Source of the DNA: Promethearchaeota archaeon
GTDB lineage: Archaea > Asgardarchaeota > Lokiarchaeia > Sigyniarchaeales > SOKP01
DNA: 64,000 nucleotides
Assembly (NCBI GenBank): GCA_016839585.1
Contig: JAEOTZ010000021.1
Span: 1-64,000 of the forward strand
Direction of reading: 5' to 3'
Positions 50,234 through 62,405 of the stretch are shown here, piece after piece. Both the position numbers and the translations under genes were made by a program. The notes beneath the pieces were generated by a model. That model worked only from the letters and a program-made list of their open reading frames with translations, searched no databases and had not been told where the DNA came from. Positions within the stretch are counted from its first letter, which is position 1. Every line of letters starts with the position of its first letter.

Positions 50234-50971
50234 ATGGAAAAACACGATAATATGATAAAAGTATTAAAATCGGATGTCTCTGAACTGATAGAAAAAGAAC
50301 TTCAATCGGCACCAGCCATTCTAGGTATTAATGTTGGAACGCCTGAAGGAACTAGAATTGCGAGTAAATTCAAAAAAGAGACAAGAATGTCGATGAGTGA
50401 AGTAACGGCCGCTAGTAGTAGCCTCGTTTTTCTATCATCAAAAATTTTGAAGGATTCATTAAACCAAAAGATTTCTTATCATTTAATTACTGGAAAAGAA
50501 AAAATAATCCATTCTATTTTAACAGAAAACATTACGATGATTTCCTATCTGAATCGAGAATTAGCAGAACTCGAAGGACTAAGTACTTACATAAATAATT
50601 TATATAAGTTAAGTCTACAGATATCAGCAATTATTGAAACTTCTGATATCCTCAAAGAACAAGTTTTTGTAGCTATAAAGAGAGCAATTCCTAACGCACT
50701 TGTTATAGCTATTATTACAAAAGACGGTTTACCCATTAAAATTCAAGCAACTATGCCTGAACCTATACTATCAGCTATTACTTCCGCAATATATAATTTA
50801 GCTGGTGTTTTATTAGAAGAAGGGTTAGAGTTTTCGATAATTGGAGGAGAAAATGGTTCAATTATTATTCATGAAATAGATGAGAATCGTATATTGGCAA
50901 TAGCGGTTCCAGAGGCAGACGAAAGGAAATTAGGTTCTTACATTGCTAAAATAAAAGCAATTATTCAATAA
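50234..50971 (+). CDS. Tandem (double) Roadblock/LC7/MglB domain protein
   Basis: Two repeats: 'GINVGTPEGTRIAS...VTAASSSL...LITGKEKII' and 'VIAIITKDGLPI...LSAITSAI...IIGGENGSIII'. Confidence 0.8.
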   Translation: MEKHDNMIKVLKSDVSELIEKELQSAPAILGINVGTPEGTRIASKFKKETRMSMSEVTAASSSLVFLSSKILKDSLNQKISYHLITGKEKIIHSILTENITMISYLNRELAELEGLSTYINNLYKLSLQISAIIETSDILKEQVFVAIKRAIPNALVIAIITKDGLPIKIQATMPEPILSAITSAIYNLAGVLLEEGLEFSIIGGENGSIIIHEIDENRILAIAVPEADERKLGSYIAKIKAIIQ

Positions 50972-52278: not shown

Positions 52279-54483
52279 TTAAAGAATTTTCTTCAATTCT
52301 AATATCAAAGAAGATGGATTATACTTATCAAATTTATATACTTCTGCATTACCAAATTTTTTAAAGTTCTTTTTAATGTTATCTGCTGAATAAGTATGTA
52401 CTCCTAAAGCCTGAGTAGCGTAAGATTTTTTTGGTTCTAATACAACTATATGGACTTTTTGTTTTGATAATTTTTTTGTTAAATCCTTCAATTCTTCAGT
52501 TACTAAGGCATAATCATTCTCAACTTGTGCAATTAAATCAGGATATTTTACTGAAATATTGGCTCCACAGTCAGAAAATATAAAGATTACCGGGATAATA
52601 TTTCGATTCTTTAGTTTCTCTGCTTTTATTAAATCTGAACATTTCTTTAATGCTGCTGCCATTGGAGTATAAGATTTTCCCTCTATTTTTTTCAATTTAT
52701 TTACAGCGCTTTTAAAATTTACTGTAGGTTTTTGGAGAACAATTGCTTCTTTACCTCTAAAAATAATTAAAGCAATTTTATCCTTTTTACGATACCCTTC
52801 TTTATGGAGAGATAATATAACATCAGTCATTTGCTTTATTACATAATACATTGACGCAGAACTATCGAGAACGAAAAAGAGAATTAAAGGAGCACGGTAT
52901 TCATAAATTTTGTCCATTAAATCATATTTGTTAAAGTGTATTGGAAATTCAACGTCAGTTTGATTATATACTTTGTTTTTCAAATAATTTCTTATAGTTG
53001 CATCTAAAGCAATACTTTTTGGAAGTAGATTGATTGGTCTCCTATATGAGACATATCTCCCTTTTTGTGAAGATGATATTTTAATCCGTCTTCCTATACC
53101 TCTTCCTCCATAATCAGAAATTTTTCGATCTTTTCTAATATTATCCAATATTGAGGTCATTTTTTTTTCCATTTTATAAATGAATGTCCTATTACTCAAT
53201 TTGTCCTCAAAAAATCGAATTTCCTCTTTTTCTCTAGGAATATTTTTTACTTTCCATCCTCCTGCAGGTTTAGGACTCCTTTTTTTGTTATCAGGGTATT
53301 TAGGAGGGGGTAGTTTCTGTTCCTTTGTTTCAGGTATATCAACTTTTTTAGGATCTACCGACTGACGTTTAAATTCCTTTTGTGGAGTATCGTCATGTTT
53401 TAAAGGACCTTCTGTGTCTTTACTAGGACGGTATGCTTCTGGGTCCTCATAGGCTTTCTGAATTTTACCATAGACTTCCGCAATTTTAGCCTTCACCTCC
53501 TTAGGGGTCATTTCGTAATGAAGTGATAGAATTCTATGCTCAAACACTAAATCCATTGCCACATCTAAGTCTTCTTCAGTAATGATTTTCCTATCACTAA
53601 ATGCGGCATGAGCTCTAGCACACCGGATGAATGTTATATCTGCTCTTTGAGAAAAGATTTCTAACTCATTAACTATTTTAGAAACAAACTCGTAAACAGA
53701 AGCGGGAATCTGGACTTCGTGAAGAATTTCTCGTGCTCTTACAATTTTGTGTTTTAAAATCTCTTGTTCACTTTTATAGCGTTTAATAAATTCTTTAGGA
53801 TTATCATCAAAGTCAATGACTTTTTTTGTTATTTCAGCTCGAAGTTTATTATCTCGAGGAGCTTTTATTCTAACTTCTAATCCAAGCCGATCTGCAATTT
53901 GAGGTCTTAATTCCCCTTCTTCAGGATTCATACTACCTACTAAAACAAATCGGGAAGGATGTGTAACAGATATTCCTTCACGTTCAATTATATTAATACC
54001 TGAAGCTGAAGCATCTAGAAGCGTATCGACAATATGATCTTGTAATAAATTAATTTCATCAATATATAATATTCCTCTATTTGCTTTAGCTAATAATCCA
54101 GGATGAAGTTCTGATGTTCCCTCTGTTAATACACGATCAATTGATAAGGAACCGCAAACCATATCTTCTGTTACACCAAGAGGGAGGTTAACCAATCGCA
54201 TCTCTCGAAATTCAGTTTCAATTTCCTTTTTCTTTTTCAATCTACAATCTTCACAAAGATCATCAATATTAGACTTAGGATCACAGGAAAACTGACAATC
54301 TTTAACAACTTCGATATCTGGCATTACCTCAACCAAAGATCTTACAGCAGTGGATTTTCCCGTACCTTGATGTCCCGTTAAAAGCACTCCTGCTATTTGG
54401 GGATCGATGACATTTAGTATTAGTGCCAACTTCATCTTATCTTGTCCTAATATAGCAGTGAAAGGATAGTTAATTTTTTTCAT
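52279..54483 (-). CDS. Chelatase ChlI/ChlD-type AAA+ ATPase fused to a vWA domain
   Basis: 'YPFTAILGQDKMKLAL', Walker A 'GHQGTGKS', 'PGLLAKANRGILYIDE', 'MNPEEGELRPQ'; Pro-rich linker; MIDAS 'LDSSASM', 'TPMA', 'FSD'. Confidence 0.9.
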   Translation of the reverse strand: MKKINYPFTAILGQDKMKLALILNVIDPQIAGVLLTGHQGTGKSTAVRSLVEVMPDIEVVKDCQFSCDPKSNIDDLCEDCRLKKKKEIETEFREMRLVNLPLGVTEDMVCGSLSIDRVLTEGTSELHPGLLAKANRGILYIDEINLLQDHIVDTLLDASASGINIIEREGISVTHPSRFVLVGSMNPEEGELRPQIADRLGLEVRIKAPRDNKLRAEITKKVIDFDDNPKEFIKRYKSEQEILKHKIVRAREILHEVQIPASVYEFVSKIVNELEIFSQRADITFIRCARAHAAFSDRKIITEEDLDVAMDLVFEHRILSLHYEMTPKEVKAKIAEVYGKIQKAYEDPEAYRPSKDTEGPLKHDDTPQKEFKRQSVDPKKVDIPETKEQKLPPPKYPDNKKRSPKPAGGWKVKNIPREKEEIRFFEDKLSNRTFIYKMEKKMTSILDNIRKDRKISDYGGRGIGRRIKISSSQKGRYVSYRRPINLLPKSIALDATIRNYLKNKVYNQTDVEFPIHFNKYDLMDKIYEYRAPLILFFVLDSSASMYYVIKQMTDVILSLHKEGYRKKDKIALIIFRGKEAIVLQKPTVNFKSAVNKLKKIEGKSYTPMAAALKKCSDLIKAEKLKNRNIIPVIFIFSDCGANISVKYPDLIAQVENDYALVTEELKDLTKKLSKQKVHIVVLEPKKSYATQALGVHTYSADNIKKNFKKFGNAEVYKFDKYNPSSLILELKKIL

Positions 54484-54636: not shown

Positions 54637-55584
54637 CTAAAACTTTGATAACTCATCAATTCTCTGATCTAATTTAGATATAACCTCATCCCATTTAGAT
54701 AAAATTTCTTCTACTTTAGGAATAACTATATCTCTTTCCTTATATTCTAAATAACCCAAAAATTCTTTAATATTTTCAATCTTCATGAAAGTTTCTGCAA
54801 CATACTTACGAATTTCGGATTTTTGGTTATCTAGAACTTCAGGAACTCTGTTGTGTTCCCCACGTCGTATTAATGTCGCTATATATTCTTCTGTTCCTTG
54901 CAAAAGGGAATTTAATTGATTTATCCTTTCCATAATAAAGTTTTCATAGGTCTCAAAAATACTATCTTTTGGAAAGAAATTAGTGATATCAATAATAAAT
55001 TTCTGGGTTAGCTTAACTAATTGCTCCATATTTTCATATCCCTCAATTCTATATTCAACTATATGATAAGATGCTTCGATACCTTTATTAACATCATTCA
55101 ATCTAAAAATTTTGAAACCAGGATCATTTTTTAATCGCTTTTCGGGATCCCCTTTTTTGTCTGCTACTTCAATTTGACGTATTAACCTTGTTGGATTAAA
55201 TACGAGAGAAACTGCTAATGGGTTATTGGTTTGATAAGACAATGTGGTTTTAATATCTATGTGGCTCATCATTACTTTAAAACCGGGATGAGAATGCCAC
55301 CAGCCTACTGTAAATTCTTCTCGAGAAAACGCCTTATCATCAATAATATATAAAGCTTCATAATCTTCATCTGACCATTTATATTGGTCGATAACTGCAT
55401 CCTTATCGAGTTTTTGATGCATAATGGGATAGGCTGCAGCAATCATTACGTCATCACCTTCATTTTTACCAATAAAAACACCACTTACTTCAAGCCAATC
55501 ATCTTTTGGGATTTTCTGGTTCGCAAATCTCACAGAGGCAGCAACTATTGTCAAATAAACCTTCTTCGGAATAATAACAGTCAT
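54637..55584 (-). CDS. MPN/JAB1 metalloprotease with intact JAMM motif + C-terminal helices (Rpn11/CSN5-like size)
   Basis: 'LEVSG' Glu; 'VGWWHSHPGFKVMMSHID' = H-x-H-x7-S-x2-D; 'SLVFNP'. Confidence 0.92.
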   Translation of the reverse strand: MTVIIPKKVYLTIVAASVRFANQKIPKDDWLEVSGVFIGKNEGDDVMIAAAYPIMHQKLDKDAVIDQYKWSDEDYEALYIIDDKAFSREEFTVGWWHSHPGFKVMMSHIDIKTTLSYQTNNPLAVSLVFNPTRLIRQIEVADKKGDPEKRLKNDPGFKIFRLNDVNKGIEASYHIVEYRIEGYENMEQLVKLTQKFIIDITNFFPKDSIFETYENFIMERINQLNSLLQGTEEYIATLIRRGEHNRVPEVLDNQKSEIRKYVAETFMKIENIKEFLGYLEYKERDIVIPKVEEILSKWDEVISKLDQRIDELSKF

Positions 55585-55750
55585 GTTCTTAAATCATTTT
55601 TCTAATTATTCAAATGGAATTATATTGATTAATACAAATTTTACTATTTATGTTTTAGTTTGAATATAAAATTATATAACTATGAAATTTATATTATAAT
55701 ATTATTACAATATTCAATTCTCAAAATTATATGCAATTTTATAGATAATT

Positions 55751-56404
55751 ATGTCATTAGATTTCGAAGTTCTTACAAGTCAATTAGGTGTTCCTGGCAC
55801 TTCCTATAGACTTCAATTGGGATTAATTAATGGGAAATGGGCTTGTAGATTATTGAAGGGAAAAGACGTAATTGATTCATATGTATTCAAAGATGTAGAT
55901 GTGCATGATGATATTCCTAATCAAAATCGAATTGTCTCGTGGGTCTTAATGACTGTAGCTATTCCAAATATAAACCCTCATCAAATTATGAAAACAACCC
56001 AGGCCTTGGTCAAACAAGCACTCAAAAAGAAGGAAGAAAGAAAAGCAGTAGCACCCATATCTGAAACAAAAAAAGTAGAGTTAGAGAGAGTTCCCGAAAG
56101 TGAATTGAAACGATCTAAAGTGGCAGGATGGGTTAAAGAAGAGGGAATGAAAACAGTTCAGGAATTAGAAGTTGAAAAACGACAAGCATTTAAAGAAAGG
56201 ATGATAACTAAAAGGGAAGAAGAAAGAACTCGAGAGGCTTCTACTTTAAAAACCTCAAGAGAATTACCATCTATTCCAACAGGTGCAGGTGGATCAAATG
56301 TATCTGCTGGTGCTGAGGTATCAAAATTTTGTCCATTTTGTGGAAAAGATTTAGACTGGAAATTCTGCCCTTATTGTGGGAAACCTCTACCACATGAAGA
56401 TTAA
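55751..56404 (+). CDS. Hypothetical protein with charged helical middle and C-terminal zinc ribbon
   Basis: 'FCPFCGKDLDWKFCPYCGKPL' at the C-terminus. Confidence 0.75.
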   Translation: MSLDFEVLTSQLGVPGTSYRLQLGLINGKWACRLLKGKDVIDSYVFKDVDVHDDIPNQNRIVSWVLMTVAIPNINPHQIMKTTQALVKQALKKKEERKAVAPISETKKVELERVPESELKRSKVAGWVKEEGMKTVQELEVEKRQAFKERMITKREEERTREASTLKTSRELPSIPTGAGGSNVSAGAEVSKFCPFCGKDLDWKFCPYCGKPLPHED

Positions 56405-56545
56405 TTTATTTTTATTTTAATAAAATCTATTTTTGAAAAAAATTATTTTTAATTTCTAAAATTCAATTCAAAAATTTAAAACATTTAAATTATATATAGA
56501 TAAAAAATTAACTATATCTAAAACTCATAAAAATCGTGATTAAAT

Positions 56546-58021
56546 TTGATATCTGATAAAACTGTCATCATTAAACCACTCGCGTATTATAAAATGCTCA
56601 TTCATGTTTTACGTTTTGGTTCTAAAGTAAGAGATCGCAAACAATATAAAGAGGTAATGGGGATCTTAATTGGTCGTCTTGAGTCAGGAGAACCTGATAA
56701 AAAAGGGATCAATGATGTAATTGTGGAAGATGCAGTACCAATTTCCCATGGCGGCTCAATAGAGGTTGCTTTTGCCCCAGAAGATTATGTAACATTCTCC
56801 ATGGTTGATGCAGAATTTGCAGAAAAAGGATGGTTTAGTGTAGGGTGGTATCATTCACACCCTGGTTTGAAGATATTCTTTTCGAGTACGGATATAAAAA
56901 ATATGCTTGGTTGGCAAACTCCTAACCCAAGCGCTATTGGAATTGTTTTCGATCATACTTTCTTAGAAAAACCTGGAGATATGGGATTTCGCGCATTTAG
57001 ATTAGATGATCCTTCTAAAGGTCAAACAACAGGTTATCATGAAGTAAAAACTGTAGTTGCACCTCCAGATAGTCTTGAATATTACCTAAAACTTATGGAA
57101 TTGATTAACAGTGTTCACTCTAAAGAACCAACAATCTTAGAAATTAATGAAATGCCTGATTTATTTGGTGATATTGCTATTCCTAGTCAAGATCAATTAA
57201 TAGCTAAGAAACCAGAATTAGAATTAACTAAAATATTTTCTGCTATACAGAATGGAATATCAAGTTTTTTAGAGTTTACAATTGAACCATTTGTAACATT
57301 TCTTAATGTATGGAGTCAAGAAATGATTAGAAAAACAATTGAATCTAATTTAGAAATGAGAAATAATATTTTAGCTATAAAGGAAAAGATTGGAAATGGT
57401 ATCTCTAATATACAAAAAGATTTTAAATTTTCCTTAAAAGATAAATTGAATCAATTAGATACGTATATCGATGATAAATTTGATGAATTTGATAATAACA
57501 ATGAAAGTCTTAAAGAAATTATAAGTCAATTTAAAATTGAACTTAATGATAAATTGAAGGTTATATTTGAAGAAAAGCTAAAGGTTTCTCTAGATCAAGG
57601 TATAAACTCGTTTAAAGAAACTCTAGAAAATTTAACAAAAATAAATCAAGAAAGTTCTAATGTTTTTGAAAAATTAGAGAGTGAAAAAAATTCTCTAAAT
57701 AGTATATCAGAGAAAATTAATTCTATTGAAGATTCAATCAACAATAAATTAAAGAATCTACAAGACGAAGTTATAAATAAACTATCCAAAAACACCAATA
57801 AAATTGTAGGAAATTTTATTAATTTAAATAAAGACACAAAGAGTTTCTTATCAGATTTAAAAGCCGCAATTATATTACTGGAAAGTTCAAAGAATCCTAT
57901 ACAGAATAAAATAAAAACCCTAGAAATGGAAAATAAGACCCTCCAAAAAGATTTATTAGAGTTGAAAAATGAAAATCAAGATTTAATGAATAAATTAAAA
58001 AAATTAGAAGGAGGAGAATAA
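56546..58021 (+). CDS. MPN/JAB1 protein with intact JAMM motif + long coiled coil
   Basis: 'KEVMGILIG', 'DAVPI', 'VGWYHSHPGLKIFFSSTD', 'GIVFDH'; about 270 aa of heptad-rich C-terminus. Confidence 0.92.
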   Translation: MISDKTVIIKPLAYYKMLIHVLRFGSKVRDRKQYKEVMGILIGRLESGEPDKKGINDVIVEDAVPISHGGSIEVAFAPEDYVTFSMVDAEFAEKGWFSVGWYHSHPGLKIFFSSTDIKNMLGWQTPNPSAIGIVFDHTFLEKPGDMGFRAFRLDDPSKGQTTGYHEVKTVVAPPDSLEYYLKLMELINSVHSKEPTILEINEMPDLFGDIAIPSQDQLIAKKPELELTKIFSAIQNGISSFLEFTIEPFVTFLNVWSQEMIRKTIESNLEMRNNILAIKEKIGNGISNIQKDFKFSLKDKLNQLDTYIDDKFDEFDNNNESLKEIISQFKIELNDKLKVIFEEKLKVSLDQGINSFKETLENLTKINQESSNVFEKLESEKNSLNSISEKINSIEDSINNKLKNLQDEVINKLSKNTNKIVGNFINLNKDTKSFLSDLKAAIILLESSKNPIQNKIKTLEMENKTLQKDLLELKNENQDLMNKLKKLEGGE

Positions 58022-59431
58022 TTGAAAATGCCCGAAAATGAATTAAACAACAATCAAGACAAAAATGAGAAAGATCAAACCATTTCAACGAAAAAAGGCA
58101 AAATTATAATAAAAAAAGAAGCTTTCAGGAATATGATAACCCATGTTTTAAGATTTGGAAGCATTGTATTAGAAAAGAGTGTAGAGGTTATGGGGATTTG
58201 TTTAGGAGAATTAACTGAAAATGAGAAAGACATTGTTTTAATTAATGCTATTCCGATCACTCATGGAAAAAAGGTATCAGCAGGTTTCACTAAAGAAGAT
58301 TATGATTTATTAACACAACTCGAAAAACAATATCAAAAGAAGAATCTCAATATCGTAGGATGGTATAGTTCTCACCCCGGGTGGGGTCTTTATTTTTCTG
58401 ACATAGAAATAAAAACTCATCAATTTTTTCAAAAGGAAAGTAATCCTAACGGATTTTGTATTGTTTTTGATCATACTTTAATGGATAAAGATAAGTCTTT
58501 TGGTTTTGAGATTTATAGATTTGATGATTTTAAAAAAGCAGATAAATATCATAATGTAGTATTTGAAATTGAAGAACCAGCAGACCTAGATTACTTTAAA
58601 TGGGTTCAGAAATTTGTAGAAGATTTTCAAAAACAGACACCTATCTTAATTAAAGAGATTAGTGAATCAAAAGAATCAATTCCGGGTGAATTACAAGAAA
58701 TACCTATATCAGAAGAGATATCACCAGCAGAAGAATTAGATGACTATTCACATATTTTACCGATAATTTCAGGATTTCAAAAAGGAGTGTCTAAATTTTC
58801 TGAATTGATAATAGATACCTTCAAGGCTCAATTTGGAGATTGGACTAATAATCTTAAAGAAGGATCTTCGAAAGGTTCAGAATATTTACGTAATAGCATA
58901 AATAAAATGAAAGAAGCAGCCTCTCAAAGTCTTATTAAAGTAGAGAATTGGTTTAACAAAAATATGGATAGTATGTTAAATGGATTTAAAGAAACTGTCG
59001 TTAATTATGTAGACAAAAGAGTTGAAGCTCAGACTCAGTTAAGAAATGAACTAAACAATATAAAAGAAGATCTATTTAATGATTTAAATATTATTGTTGA
59101 TGAAAATTTAAAATATATTAAAAGTGAAATAGCATCTGTCGTTAAATTAACAACAGTCAAAGTAAATAATAGCGTTCAAATAAATTCTAAGATTGAAGAG
59201 ATGACAGGCAGCATTTCTAAAGTAATTTTAGCAATTGAAAATGAATCAAGTGATCTTGGTAGTAAAATAGAAAAAAATATTGAAACAACGATCGATCAAT
59301 TTGAAACAAGTATTAATGAAAAAATTGAAAAAATGAGTTCAGAATTACAACCATTTAAAGAATATTACTCAGAAATTAGTGAATTGTTAGAAAAGTTACA
59401 AAAAATAATCACAGATTTTCGCAATATTTAA
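58022..59431 (+). CDS. MPN domain protein with degenerate JAMM motif (predicted inactive, MPN-) + long coiled coil; start at TTG 58022 or ATG 58028
   Basis: 'HVLRFGS', 'EVMG' and 'IVFDHT' are shared with the upstream paralog, but the motif reads 'VGWYSSHPGWGLYFSDIE' (first His>Ser, Asp>Glu). A GGAGG RBS lies inside the end of the upstream gene. Confidence 0.9.
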   Translation: MKMPENELNNNQDKNEKDQTISTKKGKIIIKKEAFRNMITHVLRFGSIVLEKSVEVMGICLGELTENEKDIVLINAIPITHGKKVSAGFTKEDYDLLTQLEKQYQKKNLNIVGWYSSHPGWGLYFSDIEIKTHQFFQKESNPNGFCIVFDHTLMDKDKSFGFEIYRFDDFKKADKYHNVVFEIEEPADLDYFKWVQKFVEDFQKQTPILIKEISESKESIPGELQEIPISEEISPAEELDDYSHILPIISGFQKGVSKFSELIIDTFKAQFGDWTNNLKEGSSKGSEYLRNSINKMKEAASQSLIKVENWFNKNMDSMLNGFKETVVNYVDKRVEAQTQLRNELNNIKEDLFNDLNIIVDENLKYIKSEIASVVKLTTVKVNNSVQINSKIEEMTGSISKVILAIENESSDLGSKIEKNIETTIDQFETSINEKIEKMSSELQPFKEYYSEISELLEKLQKIITDFRNI

Positions 59432-59491: not shown

Positions 59492-59776
59492 TTAGAAAAA
59501 CTGTAAACTTGAAACTCTAGAAATATGTAATCTATATTTAGGAATGTTAGTACTCAATCGCTTTAATTGATTCAATTTAGCAATTTTACCTAAAACTCTT
59601 CCTATTTTATCAACTTTAATGTCAACTCCAAAATTTTCCTTTAGAACTGAATTAATTTTATAGGATGATAAAATAACTACGCTTGAGATATTTTTTTCGC
59701 ATAGCAACTCAATTGCTTTTTTTACTAAGCGAATCAGAGTTTCTTTATTATCTATCTTAGTTTTTTCCATTCTCAA
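59492..59776 (-). CDS. Small basic hypothetical protein, possibly winged-helix
   Basis: 'LSSYKINSVLKENFGVDIKVDKIGRVLGKIAK...LKRL....PKYRL' fits a helix-turn-helix-wing pattern. Confidence 0.5.
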   Translation of the reverse strand: MRMEKTKIDNKETLIRLVKKAIELLCEKNISSVVILSSYKINSVLKENFGVDIKVDKIGRVLGKIAKLNQLKRLSTNIPKYRLHISRVSSLQFF

Positions 59777-60056: not shown

Positions 60057-62405
60057 ATGAAAAAAAAAGAGTTTATATCAAACCTTCGAACAAAGATTGC
60101 AGCCTTTAAGTCAAGAACAGGTGAAAAATTAAAGGATTATACTGATAAACTTGTTCACAAGGAAGTTTATGTTGATGGACAAGAACCTCCAAAATTTTAT
60201 TCATTTGAAAAAAAATTTCTTGGCTTGTATATTATTTTTATAATATCATCTTTAGTTTTAATAATAGCAATTAACTTTTCACAAAATAATTTTATTGATA
60301 CAATAATTTTTACTGTTTCAAATGCAATTGTTGCATTCTTCCTGCTACTATCTGCATTATTAAGTGTAGATAAGTTTAGATTATTTTTATTTGAAGAAAG
60401 AACTTTTATTAAACAAATTATTTTGTATTTAGCTTTATTTACTTTACTTATTCCAATTTCTTTTTATATCTCAACAGACATTAACTTCATAACTTATTTA
60501 TCGATTTTTGCAATGATTTGGTTATTTCTTCTAAGCAGCAGATTCTATATTTATTCTAGGAAATTTGCTACAAAAATTGAAGCAAGATTTATTAAAAAAT
60601 ATTCCATCCCTAGATATCTTGTCGCCATTATTATTCCCTTTTTAATATTAGTTGTTCTTGTTATTCTTTCACTATTTTATAGGAGTTTCTTAGTGTTTCT
60701 TTCATTAGATATTTTTGGCAAGATTGATCCTAGTGCCGCTGTTAAAGTGTATAATCTAGAAATGCGTGTTGTTATGCCGCTAATTTATTTTAGTTTGGTA
60801 TTGACCTTGGTATTTATAATTTTTGAATTCGTTTTTACTAGAAGGCGTGCAGAAACAAAAAGAGCTGGAACCTTTGACAATTTTACTTTTTCTTTAATTG
60901 TTTTATTCATCTTTTTCTTTCAAATTTTAGAAATCAGTATCTTTATGTTATTAAGACCAGAAACAATAGATGCATTTAAAGCAACGGTAGGAGCTACTGT
61001 CTCGCCTGTTGGCATTATTTTAATTTTTGAGTTTATTATATCTATGTATTTTCTATATAGGGTTGTCAAAAAAACTGGTAGAACATTAGGATGGCGTATT
61101 TTTATATTTAAGAAAGACGGATTAGTTTTATTCTTTTTAGCATGTGTACTCGCTCAAACTATGACACGTTTTGCACTAACAAATGAAATAACAAATCAAG
61201 AAGTAACTCCAATTGGGATTTGGTTAATGGCGGATAAATATGTAATTTCAGTATTGATGATTTTTCTCTTAGGTAGTACTTTATTAGTCTATTATATAAA
61301 ACCTCATGAGACTTCAATGTTTATGAGACTTCAAAAAGAATTAGTATATGATGAAGAAAAGAATATTGAAAAAATTTATAAGATTATAAGAAGTGAATAC
61401 ATCCGGAGGGGAGAGGCTTTTCCAATTGAAATACTTGAGCGTGAATTAATTAAAGCAACTCGACTATCAAAAAGTAATGTTTACTCTCTAGTTGAGCAAT
61501 TAGCGACTAAAGATATGGATATTCTTATAAATGAGAGAAAAGAAGAATTTGGTACACCCGTAAAATTTATAGATTTCACCTCTGTTACCGAACGATTTGA
61601 TAGAAAAGGAAAAGCACAAGAAAAAGCTAAAAAATATTTAGCTAAAAGATTATATGAAACTAGTTTAGCGGAAAAGAGTGAAAAAAGCAGATTAAGAGCT
61701 GTCAGCGAATCAGAAAAAGCTTCAGATCAACTTATTGCCTCTCTTACTACAAACTATGCAAAAAAGCAAGTAGACGAACAAGAAATGAAAAAAGTAAAAG
61801 AAGATGCAAAAATAACCAAAGATTTGAAAGTAAAATTAACAGATGCTTTAAAAAATCAGCTGTTACAAATGATTAAGGATGAATATTTTTATAGGATTGA
61901 AAACAATGAAAAGTTTCTTGACTTATATATCCCTATTTCTGAAATATCAGATCAAATTGAATTAAATACAAGAATAACTCCTGGAGAATTATATCCTATC
62001 TTAGAGAGGCTCAGTAGCGCTGATTTGGAATTGGTTCTAATAGAGAATCCCGATGAACCTGAGGATAAAAAAATCAAATTCTTACCTTTTTCTGATGATA
62101 GTATGAACTTCTCTTTAGCTAATTTTAGACCGGAAGAGTATGCTAAATTTAGAGTTCATGTAACTAAAAATTTTCATAGAGCTCTTAAAACCAAGAGAGA
62201 AAAAAGAGTTATATATCAATTGAAAAAAGAGGTTTCAGATAAAAATGAAGATCAAAAATCGTGGTTTAATCTATTAGATAATTTATATAAATACTATCCT
62301 TTATATGCTGAAAAATTATCATCTGTTCCTAATACAACAAAACTTAGAAATCAATTGAGGAAAATGGAAGAATTTTATGAGAGAAAACGTACCTTAAACA
62401 GCTAA
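60057..62405 (+). CDS. Polytopic membrane protein (about 10 TM) with a cytoplasmic C-terminal region containing two related wH-like repeats
   Basis: Hydrophobic helices at about aa 55-415; internal repeat 'IIRSEY.RR..FPIE.LERELIKATRLSKSNVYSLVEQL' vs 'MIKDEY.YR..IPISEISDQIELNTRITPGELYPILERL'. Confidence 0.7.
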   Translation: MKKKEFISNLRTKIAAFKSRTGEKLKDYTDKLVHKEVYVDGQEPPKFYSFEKKFLGLYIIFIISSLVLIIAINFSQNNFIDTIIFTVSNAIVAFFLLLSALLSVDKFRLFLFEERTFIKQIILYLALFTLLIPISFYISTDINFITYLSIFAMIWLFLLSSRFYIYSRKFATKIEARFIKKYSIPRYLVAIIIPFLILVVLVILSLFYRSFLVFLSLDIFGKIDPSAAVKVYNLEMRVVMPLIYFSLVLTLVFIIFEFVFTRRRAETKRAGTFDNFTFSLIVLFIFFFQILEISIFMLLRPETIDAFKATVGATVSPVGIILIFEFIISMYFLYRVVKKTGRTLGWRIFIFKKDGLVLFFLACVLAQTMTRFALTNEITNQEVTPIGIWLMADKYVISVLMIFLLGSTLLVYYIKPHETSMFMRLQKELVYDEEKNIEKIYKIIRSEYIRRGEAFPIEILERELIKATRLSKSNVYSLVEQLATKDMDILINERKEEFGTPVKFIDFTSVTERFDRKGKAQEKAKKYLAKRLYETSLAEKSEKSRLRAVSESEKASDQLIASLTTNYAKKQVDEQEMKKVKEDAKITKDLKVKLTDALKNQLLQMIKDEYFYRIENNEKFLDLYIPISEISDQIELNTRITPGELYPILERLSSADLELVLIENPDEPEDKKIKFLPFSDDSMNFSLANFRPEEYAKFRVHVTKNFHRALKTKREKRVIYQLKKEVSDKNEDQKSWFNLLDNLYKYYPLYAEKLSSVPNTTKLRNQLRKMEEFYERKRTLNS

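Follow-up and report, generated by a model that had tools for sequence, protein, structure and literature searches.

A JAMM enzyme by motif and its repeatedly inactivated paralog, encoded side by side in an order of Lokiarchaeia

Three MPN genes at one archaeal locus raise the question of whether the pairing of an active MPN subunit (MPN+) with a dead paralog (MPN−), an arrangement described as eukaryotic and not known in archaea (PMC6043591), has a counterpart or even a forerunner in an Asgard lineage. The genes, here called A, B and C, lie in the window, a stretch of 64,000 nucleotides (positions 1-64,000) of contig JAEOTZ010000021.1 from a Promethearchaeota archaeon (Lokiarchaeia; Sigyniarchaeales; SOKP01; assembly GCA_016839585.1). 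An earlier reading of the sequence alone (the sequence-only reading) had seen in them a three-MPN cluster with an obligate MPN+/MPN− pair, a candidate forerunner of the Rpn11-Rpn8, CSN5-CSN6 and BRCC36-Abraxas dimers. We find a conserved and apparently undescribed pair, B and C, in which the site of B is always intact and that of C has been lost repeatedly, and which seems to have converged on the eukaryotic MPN+/MPN− design without being its ancestor. The three genes, all of which match the Pfam family JAB (PF01398) above its cut-off, and the features of B and C are as follows.

54637-55584, minus strand: gene A, 315 residues, with an intact JAMM site (Pfam) and a C-terminal three-helix bundle (model).
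56546-58021, plus strand: gene B, 491 residues, JAMM/MPN+ by motif, with an MPN domain (residues 5-191), a linker and a helical tail of about 240 residues.
57260-57976, plus strand: helical tail of B, with a hydrophobic period of 3.67 residues (11/3, hendecad) in its first 80 residues.
58010-58024, plus strand: B-C junction, with GGAGG at 58010-58014 in the last codons of B, TAA at 58019-58021 and then TTG at 58022.
58022-59431, plus strand: gene C, 469 residues, a paralog of B and a pseudo-JAMM in the window genome; its tail is long and helical, and its C-terminal helix is conserved.
58367-58369, plus strand: Ser codon AGT at the first Zn-ligand position of C, read from the sequence.
58406-58408, plus strand: Glu codon GAA at the Asp Zn-ligand position of C, read from the sequence.
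58739-59428, plus strand: helical tail of C, with the 3.67 period in its first 80 residues and a drift to about 3.6.

The hallmark of JAMM/MPN+ proteins is an MPN fold carrying the motif ExnHxHx7Sx2D (PMC9313428), and both A (E32, H97, H99, S107, D110) and B (E36, H103, H105, S113, D116) have it as an E-H-H-S-D site. The equivalent residues of C (E55, S116, H118, S126, E129) read E-S-H-S-E: the catalytic Glu55, His118 and Ser126 are kept, the first His ligand (position 116) is Ser, the Asp ligand (position 129) is Glu, and Glu86 of Ins-1 is Ser. B and C are colinear over both MPN domain and tail (hhalign 100%, E 8e-78, 407 columns). The model of B, with a predicted local distance difference test score (pLDDT) of 76, shows the MPN domain ending at residue 191 and, past a loose linker, a single helix of about 240 residues (239-477). 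On these points the sequence-only reading stands: the three open reading frames are where it had placed them, by the frame list and by Pfam; the JAMM sites of A and B are intact; the two ligand codons of C are those it named; B and C are paralogous from end to end, tails included; both carry helical or coiled-coil tails of about 230-240 residues; and C starts right after the B stop codon, with a GGAGG ribosome-binding site inside B. That GGAGG lies 7 nt upstream of the TTG start, an arrangement from which we infer translational coupling of B and C. In the window genome, Shine-Dalgarno-like words occur before starts about five times as often as at a control position (142 versus 28, 1449 open reading frames), and a Shine-Dalgarno-like 4-mer stands at 69 of 82 orthologous B-C junctions, a count that comes without a control.

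How general the pair is can be seen in about 100 loci sampled from the genus, family, order and class, which gave 83 distinct B-C pairs (individual loci are numbered L001 onward). Adjacency and common orientation hold in 82 of the 83, with gaps of −35 to +57 nt, and in the remaining pair a 6-kb insertion intervenes; C is present at all 84 loci with a full-length B. The site of B is intact in 82/82 readable orthologs. C is a different matter: 36 of the 83 copies are intact, 7 have lost the catalytic Glu only, and 40 have lost Zn ligands, their dead motifs being many and different from one another and each conserved within its clade. The S...E motif of the window copy recurs in the close relatives L003 and L004, and L001 and L002 carry I...E and S...S; because independent close relatives share the motif or have other dead ones, a sequencing error in C is rejected, as the sequence-only reading had argued from the codons.

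When the catalytic Glu and JAMM columns are excluded from the tree of C, the minimum by parsimony is 8 state changes, every one of them in C, and disallowing regain gives up to 13 losses. The earliest-branching C copies in two families are intact, and a single ancient loss is rejected (one clade of Zn-less C, p 1e-67, with the same columns excluded). The inactive site is thus not a fixed property of the C family and, since 36 of 83 copies retain the full JAMM, the earliest-branching ones included, the ancestral pair was MPN+/MPN+, with the dead state arising repeatedly. The sequence-only reading had asked whether gene order and JAMM loss are both conserved among orthologs; the former is (82/83), and the latter is not. 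It had also taken retention of HxH...D in most orthologs of C as grounds for abandoning its proposal, and the 36 full sites bring that outcome about in part. One subclade complicates the picture. Residues 81-145 of C from L019, L023, L025 and L026 are closer to the distant L036-L041 group than to their own sisters, and this nested group shares an identical dead motif with the distant one; a dead JAMM segment has apparently been imported into an active subclade of C (g1) by recombination, or convergence has been strong. Glu86 of Ins-1 is present in 41/43 Zn-intact copies versus 10/40 Zn-less ones, a covariation that is suggestive and not significant on independent pairs (p 0.25).

Loss of the site has not released C from selection. 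Zn-less C copies, including that of the window, are under purifying selection: the ratio of nonsynonymous to synonymous substitution rates (dN/dS) in the MPN domain is 0.10-0.21 for Zn-less pairs, the corresponding ranges being 0.07-0.14 for B in those genome pairs and 0.11-0.14 for C with an intact site; for the window copy against four close relatives it is 0.10-0.17. With its Zn-ligand set lost and its sequence conserved, C of the window genome is an MPN− pseudo-enzyme, and its description as a retained pseudo-JAMM with an intact reading frame is borne out. Among Zn-less copies, helices alpha1 (0.76) and alpha4 (0.70) are among the best-conserved segments, and Ins-1 (0.55) and the JAMM segment (0.60) are relaxed. 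That losses recur, fall on one side only and leave selection in place is the chief reason for assigning C a non-catalytic job.

Building on the motifs, the paralogy, the gene order, the one-sided loss, the selection and the phylogenetic position discussed below, we favor, with some reserve, a B-C heterodimer, made by co-translation, whose packed MPN heads would sit on a coiled-coil stalk and in which B would be the essential isopeptidase and C a structural partner with dispensable catalysis. Such a pair would have arisen by tandem duplication of a Lokiarchaeia gene encoding a JAMM domain plus coiled coil in the ancestor of the window's order, with both copies active. B and C would be made 1:1, most likely as the halves of a heterodimer; their MPN domains may pack through alpha1 and alpha4, as in Rpn11-Rpn8, and the two colinear tails may wind into an 11/3-type coiled-coil stalk, about 30-35 nm long if straight. 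B would be the indispensable Zn-isopeptidase, probably acting on conjugates of ubiquitin (Ub) or a ubiquitin-like protein (Ubl) made by Ub/E1/E2 operons elsewhere in the genome. C would be needed as the structural partner and its own catalysis would be dispensable, so that it could turn into a pseudo-enzyme many times, including in the window genome, as B never did. We rate as an even chance the fuller claim that B-C would be an MPN+/MPN− heterodimeric deubiquitinase, the first in archaea, with its JAMM head carried by a hendecad stalk of about 30 nm and a partner that switches between enzyme and pseudo-enzyme across living relatives, in part by recombination of the active-site segment.

Several points weigh against this heterodimer. 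With both sites intact in 43% of pairs, the dead state is optional, and the obligate MPN+/MPN− pairing of the sequence-only reading falls. Loss and regain look alike to parsimony, and one g1 subclade has apparently recombined. The MPN-domain tree on which the phylogenetic position depends has 159 columns, 11 eukaryotic Rpn11 sequences, long branches and no eukaryotic MPN− sequences. The neighborhood of A, B and C holds no ubiquitin-system gene, which leaves the substrate of B a guess; Ub, E1 and E2 genes are found at two loci elsewhere in the window genome, and two of its seven JAB genes sit in Ub/Ubl-E1-E2 operons on other contigs. Finally, structure prediction of the complex, which covered the B-C pairing, gives weak support: ESMFold2 scored B-C at 0.55 versus 0.00 for the best control, with at least 60% of contacts agreeing between runs and a partner pLDDT of at least 66. 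The mark used is reached by 58/80 solved complexes and 2/110 mismatches, and scores of 0.60 or under account for only 7 of the 80 and for both mismatches; the B-C score may reflect memory of, or likeness to, solved MPN dimers. What survives of the heterodimer proposed earlier is thus this weak model support and the coupling of C to an always-intact B, without the obligate MPN− state.

The alternative that survives best, though we think it improbable, is that B and C form separate homodimers or homo-oligomers on their own coiled coils and are merely co-expressed, C being a non-catalytic Ub/Ubl binder or scaffold like the MPN− proteins Npl4 or EMC8/9. Tandem paralogs with long amphipathic tails can self-pair, a Caldiarchaeum subterraneum JAMM forms a crystal homodimer through H1/H4 (PMC6043591), and conservation of the dead C motifs within clades would fit a new binding role. 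The strict 1:1 co-occurrence of abutting genes over 83 pairs speaks for a joint product instead, as does a heterodimer score that is weak but clean against controls.

Less probable still is a chiefly structural or membrane-binding assembly, a fibre or tether with 11/3 amphipathic tails resembling apolipoproteins or the tail of ZorA, in which proteolysis is secondary and which perhaps involves a nearby membrane protein. The gene in question (60057-62405) encodes 782 residues with about 10 predicted transmembrane (TM) helices and a soluble C-terminal half; it is syntenic at 69/83 loci and matched no known family. This synteny, the 3.67 period of the tails and weak profile matches to apolipoprotein A-IV (E 5e-10) and to a ZorA model favor a tether; but coiled-coil matches of this kind are generic, a convergent gene separates the TM gene from C, and the invariant site of B means that catalysis is essential in at least one subunit.

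We regard as very unlikely that an obligate MPN+/MPN− heterodimer here is the archaeal forerunner, by orthology, of Rpn11-Rpn8, CSN5-CSN6 or BRCC36-Abraxas. The logic of an active and an inactive MPN subunit with C-terminal helices is the same, there is the weak complex support, and the best Protein Data Bank (PDB) matches, in sequence and in fold, are Rpn11, CSN5 and BRCC36; for A, B and C alike the matches, which also include CsRpn11 and AMSH, run through the MPN domain only. Ancestry and range argue otherwise. Full-length matches to the B profile occur only within the window's order; a sample of about 220 genomes from outside the class yielded nothing better than E 2e-32, on a par with matches to the MPN domain alone, so that the pair was not found there rather than shown to be absent, and none of 45 sampled genomes from other Asgard classes showed an abutting JAB pair of the B-C kind. 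One clade (support 99/97), nested among Lokiarchaeia MPN proteins, holds B and C; eukaryotic Rpn11 groups with small JAMMs from other Asgard classes and is separated from that clade by several supported branches. C is the sister of B in this tree, and its profile finds Rpn11, CSN5, BRCC36 and AMSH, and no Rpn8, CSN6, Abraxas or other eukaryotic MPN− protein, among its best 60 PDB matches (down to E 4e-4). Pfam gave no match to the C-terminal families of eukaryotic MPN proteins. The approximately unbiased test rejects B with Rpn11 (p 0.004) and B and C with Rpn11 (p 0.013), on 159 columns; since the forerunner idea needs the first of these topologies, the rejection counts against it, and B cannot be taken as an ortholog of Rpn11. 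The ancestral C was moreover intact, with losses recent and repeated. The MPN phylogeny suggested as a check points away from Rpn11 and into a Lokiarchaeia expansion of MPN genes.

Last, that C is a decaying duplicate or early pseudogene in the window lineage, as two lost Zn ligands and faster evolution than B might suggest, is hardly credible and is refuted by its intact reading frame, by the dN/dS values (0.10-0.17) obtained with the four close relatives, and by the persistence of its dead motif from species to species.

We also considered, and rejected, gene A as the locus's "Rpn11" or as a third subunit of the complex. It is on the minus strand, divergent from B, C and the gene Z listed below (the sequence-only reading had given no strand); it shares only the MPN domain with B by profile comparison, is not a sister of B/C in the MPN-domain tree and ends differently. 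Its model (pLDDT 92) consists of an MPN domain, which aligns with Rpn11 (4o8x_B; Z 17.1, root-mean-square deviation 2.8, 147 residues), and a generic three-helix bundle, whose spectrin/BAG-like matches (Z about 10) are within chance for helical bundles. A complex of all three MPN proteins is not supported, A being nonetheless syntenic. In L085, L087, L088, L089 and L105 the JAMM loop of A is one residue longer (VMLSGFGD), and at some loci this variant adjoins C variants with an H-to-R change.

A second feature of A is an insert of 30-32 nt that splits the JAMM motif in 9 of 66 distinct ortholog segments, at the following positions.

L003:4159-4189(-), L018:7160-7189, L021:6370-6400, L027:3040-3070(-), L031:2897-2928(-): inserts in A orthologs.
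L041:7354-7384, L070:7036-7065, L073:7063-7093, L075:7229-7259: further inserts in A orthologs.

All nine have a bulge-helix-bulge (BHB) with a 4-bp central helix and 3-nt bulges; cutting them at the EndA positions restores a protein of 316-322 residues, and 5 of 11 pairs show compensatory changes. The insert site is an F/K junction, equivalent to 55278/55279 of the window, whose own copy of A has no insert, and the inserts are scattered over the genus tree. The insert looks like a BHB mRNA intron and a candidate for EndA splicing. The cbf5 pre-mRNA of Crenarchaeota carries such an intron (PMC2738675), likewise short, located within coding sequence, patchy in occurrence and matching the A insert in its 4-bp helix and 3-nt bulges; the A insert differs in gene and phylum, in being absent from the window copy, and in being known here from sequence alone.

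Two further genes flank the pair.

55751-56404, plus strand: gene Z, Promethearchaeota-specific, with a C-terminal zinc ribbon, upstream of B in the same orientation.
59492-59776, minus strand: gene W, conserved and convergent, 94 residues, with only a weak DUF5797 match.

Among the 83 loci, A is syntenic at 65 (some being cut by locus ends), Z at 72 and W at 73. Atlas searches with Z and the TM gene returned only unnamed Promethearchaeota clusters, and an NCBIfam search gave no match above cut-off. Downstream of A and in its orientation lies a fusion of a ChlI/ChlD-like AAA+ domain with a vWA domain (52279-54483; syntenic at 55/83 loci). The window also encodes a tandem Roadblock/LC7 protein (50234-50971; Pfam PF03259 in two stretches). 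The window genome also encodes two more large JAMM proteins with helical C-terminal parts, C60:27058-28620 (520 residues) and C43:23793-24914 (373 residues), which are part of the Lokiarchaeia MPN expansion.

Variants of the locus itself were seen elsewhere. In L080 (946-2163) and L044 (4447-5839), which belong to different families, two tandem, tail-less and fully degenerate MPN genes (about 200-246 residues), homologous between the loci, lie directly upstream of B and may form a four-MPN operon with B-C; in the window genome no ortholog of them turned up, and what matched weakly were its known MPN genes. A second, shorter-tailed B-C pair is present in two genomes of another family; it is about 370 and 333 residues long (L048:531-2634 and L049:4195-6271), and its second gene is dead in both, the long pair there being MPN+/MPN+.

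A literature search, with most subscription papers outside its reach, found no published description of the B-C pair, nor did look-ups in PMC10936438 and PMC11237513. Nothing in the pair shifts the origin of the proteasome lid or the signalosome back to archaea. An Asgard lineage appears instead to have reached an enzyme/pseudo-enzyme pair independently and repeatedly, always disabling the same subunit, and its natural variants make it testable which of two routes gives rise to a pseudo-enzyme partner, neutral entrenchment after duplication or selection for a regulatory role. If the B-C heterodimer is real, natural MPN+/MPN+ and MPN+/MPN− versions of one complex would be at hand for testing the origin of subunits of the Rpn8, CSN6 or Abraxas type.

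Set beside known archaeal systems, B and C share an Rpn11-like JAMM domain with CsRpn11 of Caldiarchaeum subterraneum (E 2e-8), a small protein that is monomeric in solution and lies inside a Ub operon (PMC6043591), and with the JAMMs of Asgard Ub operons, of which the window genome has its own Ub-E1-E2-JAMM examples. B and C differ from these in being 470-490 residues long, in lying outside Ub operons and in branching at a great distance from the JAMMs found there. According to Fuchs et al., the Rpn11-Rpn8 organization is not known in archaea (PMC6043591). Like Rpn11-Rpn8 of the 26S lid and CSN5-CSN6 of the COP9 signalosome, whose subunits Rpn11 and CSN5 are among the best PDB sequence matches, the locus has ExnHxHx7Sx2D in B and in A, and the conserved alpha1 and alpha4 helices could form a similar interface; clades of B, or of B and C, with Rpn11 are rejected. 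Three marginal matches to the PCI domain (PF01399; E 2-4e-4) occur in the window genome, none at the locus, and the same search also rings in control genomes. There is also a likeness to BRCC36-Abraxas and BRCC36-ABRO1 (KIAA0157), the core of BRCA1-A and BRISC, in which an MPN+ protein is joined to an MPN− paralog and both run into C-terminal helices; a Foldseek search with the B model ranks BRCC36 first (6gvw_B, E 2e-12), on the strength of the MPN domain. Unlike in BRCC36-Abraxas, the tails of B and C, an 11/3 helix of about 230-240 residues, greatly exceed the eukaryotic helical bundle in length, C is dead in only about half of lineages, and no BRCC36 C-terminal family was matched. MPN− subunits serve as scaffolds in the eukaryotic pairs (PMC9313428). 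B-C is not a member of these families by descent; in its workings it would be like BRCC36-Abraxas or Rpn11-Rpn8.

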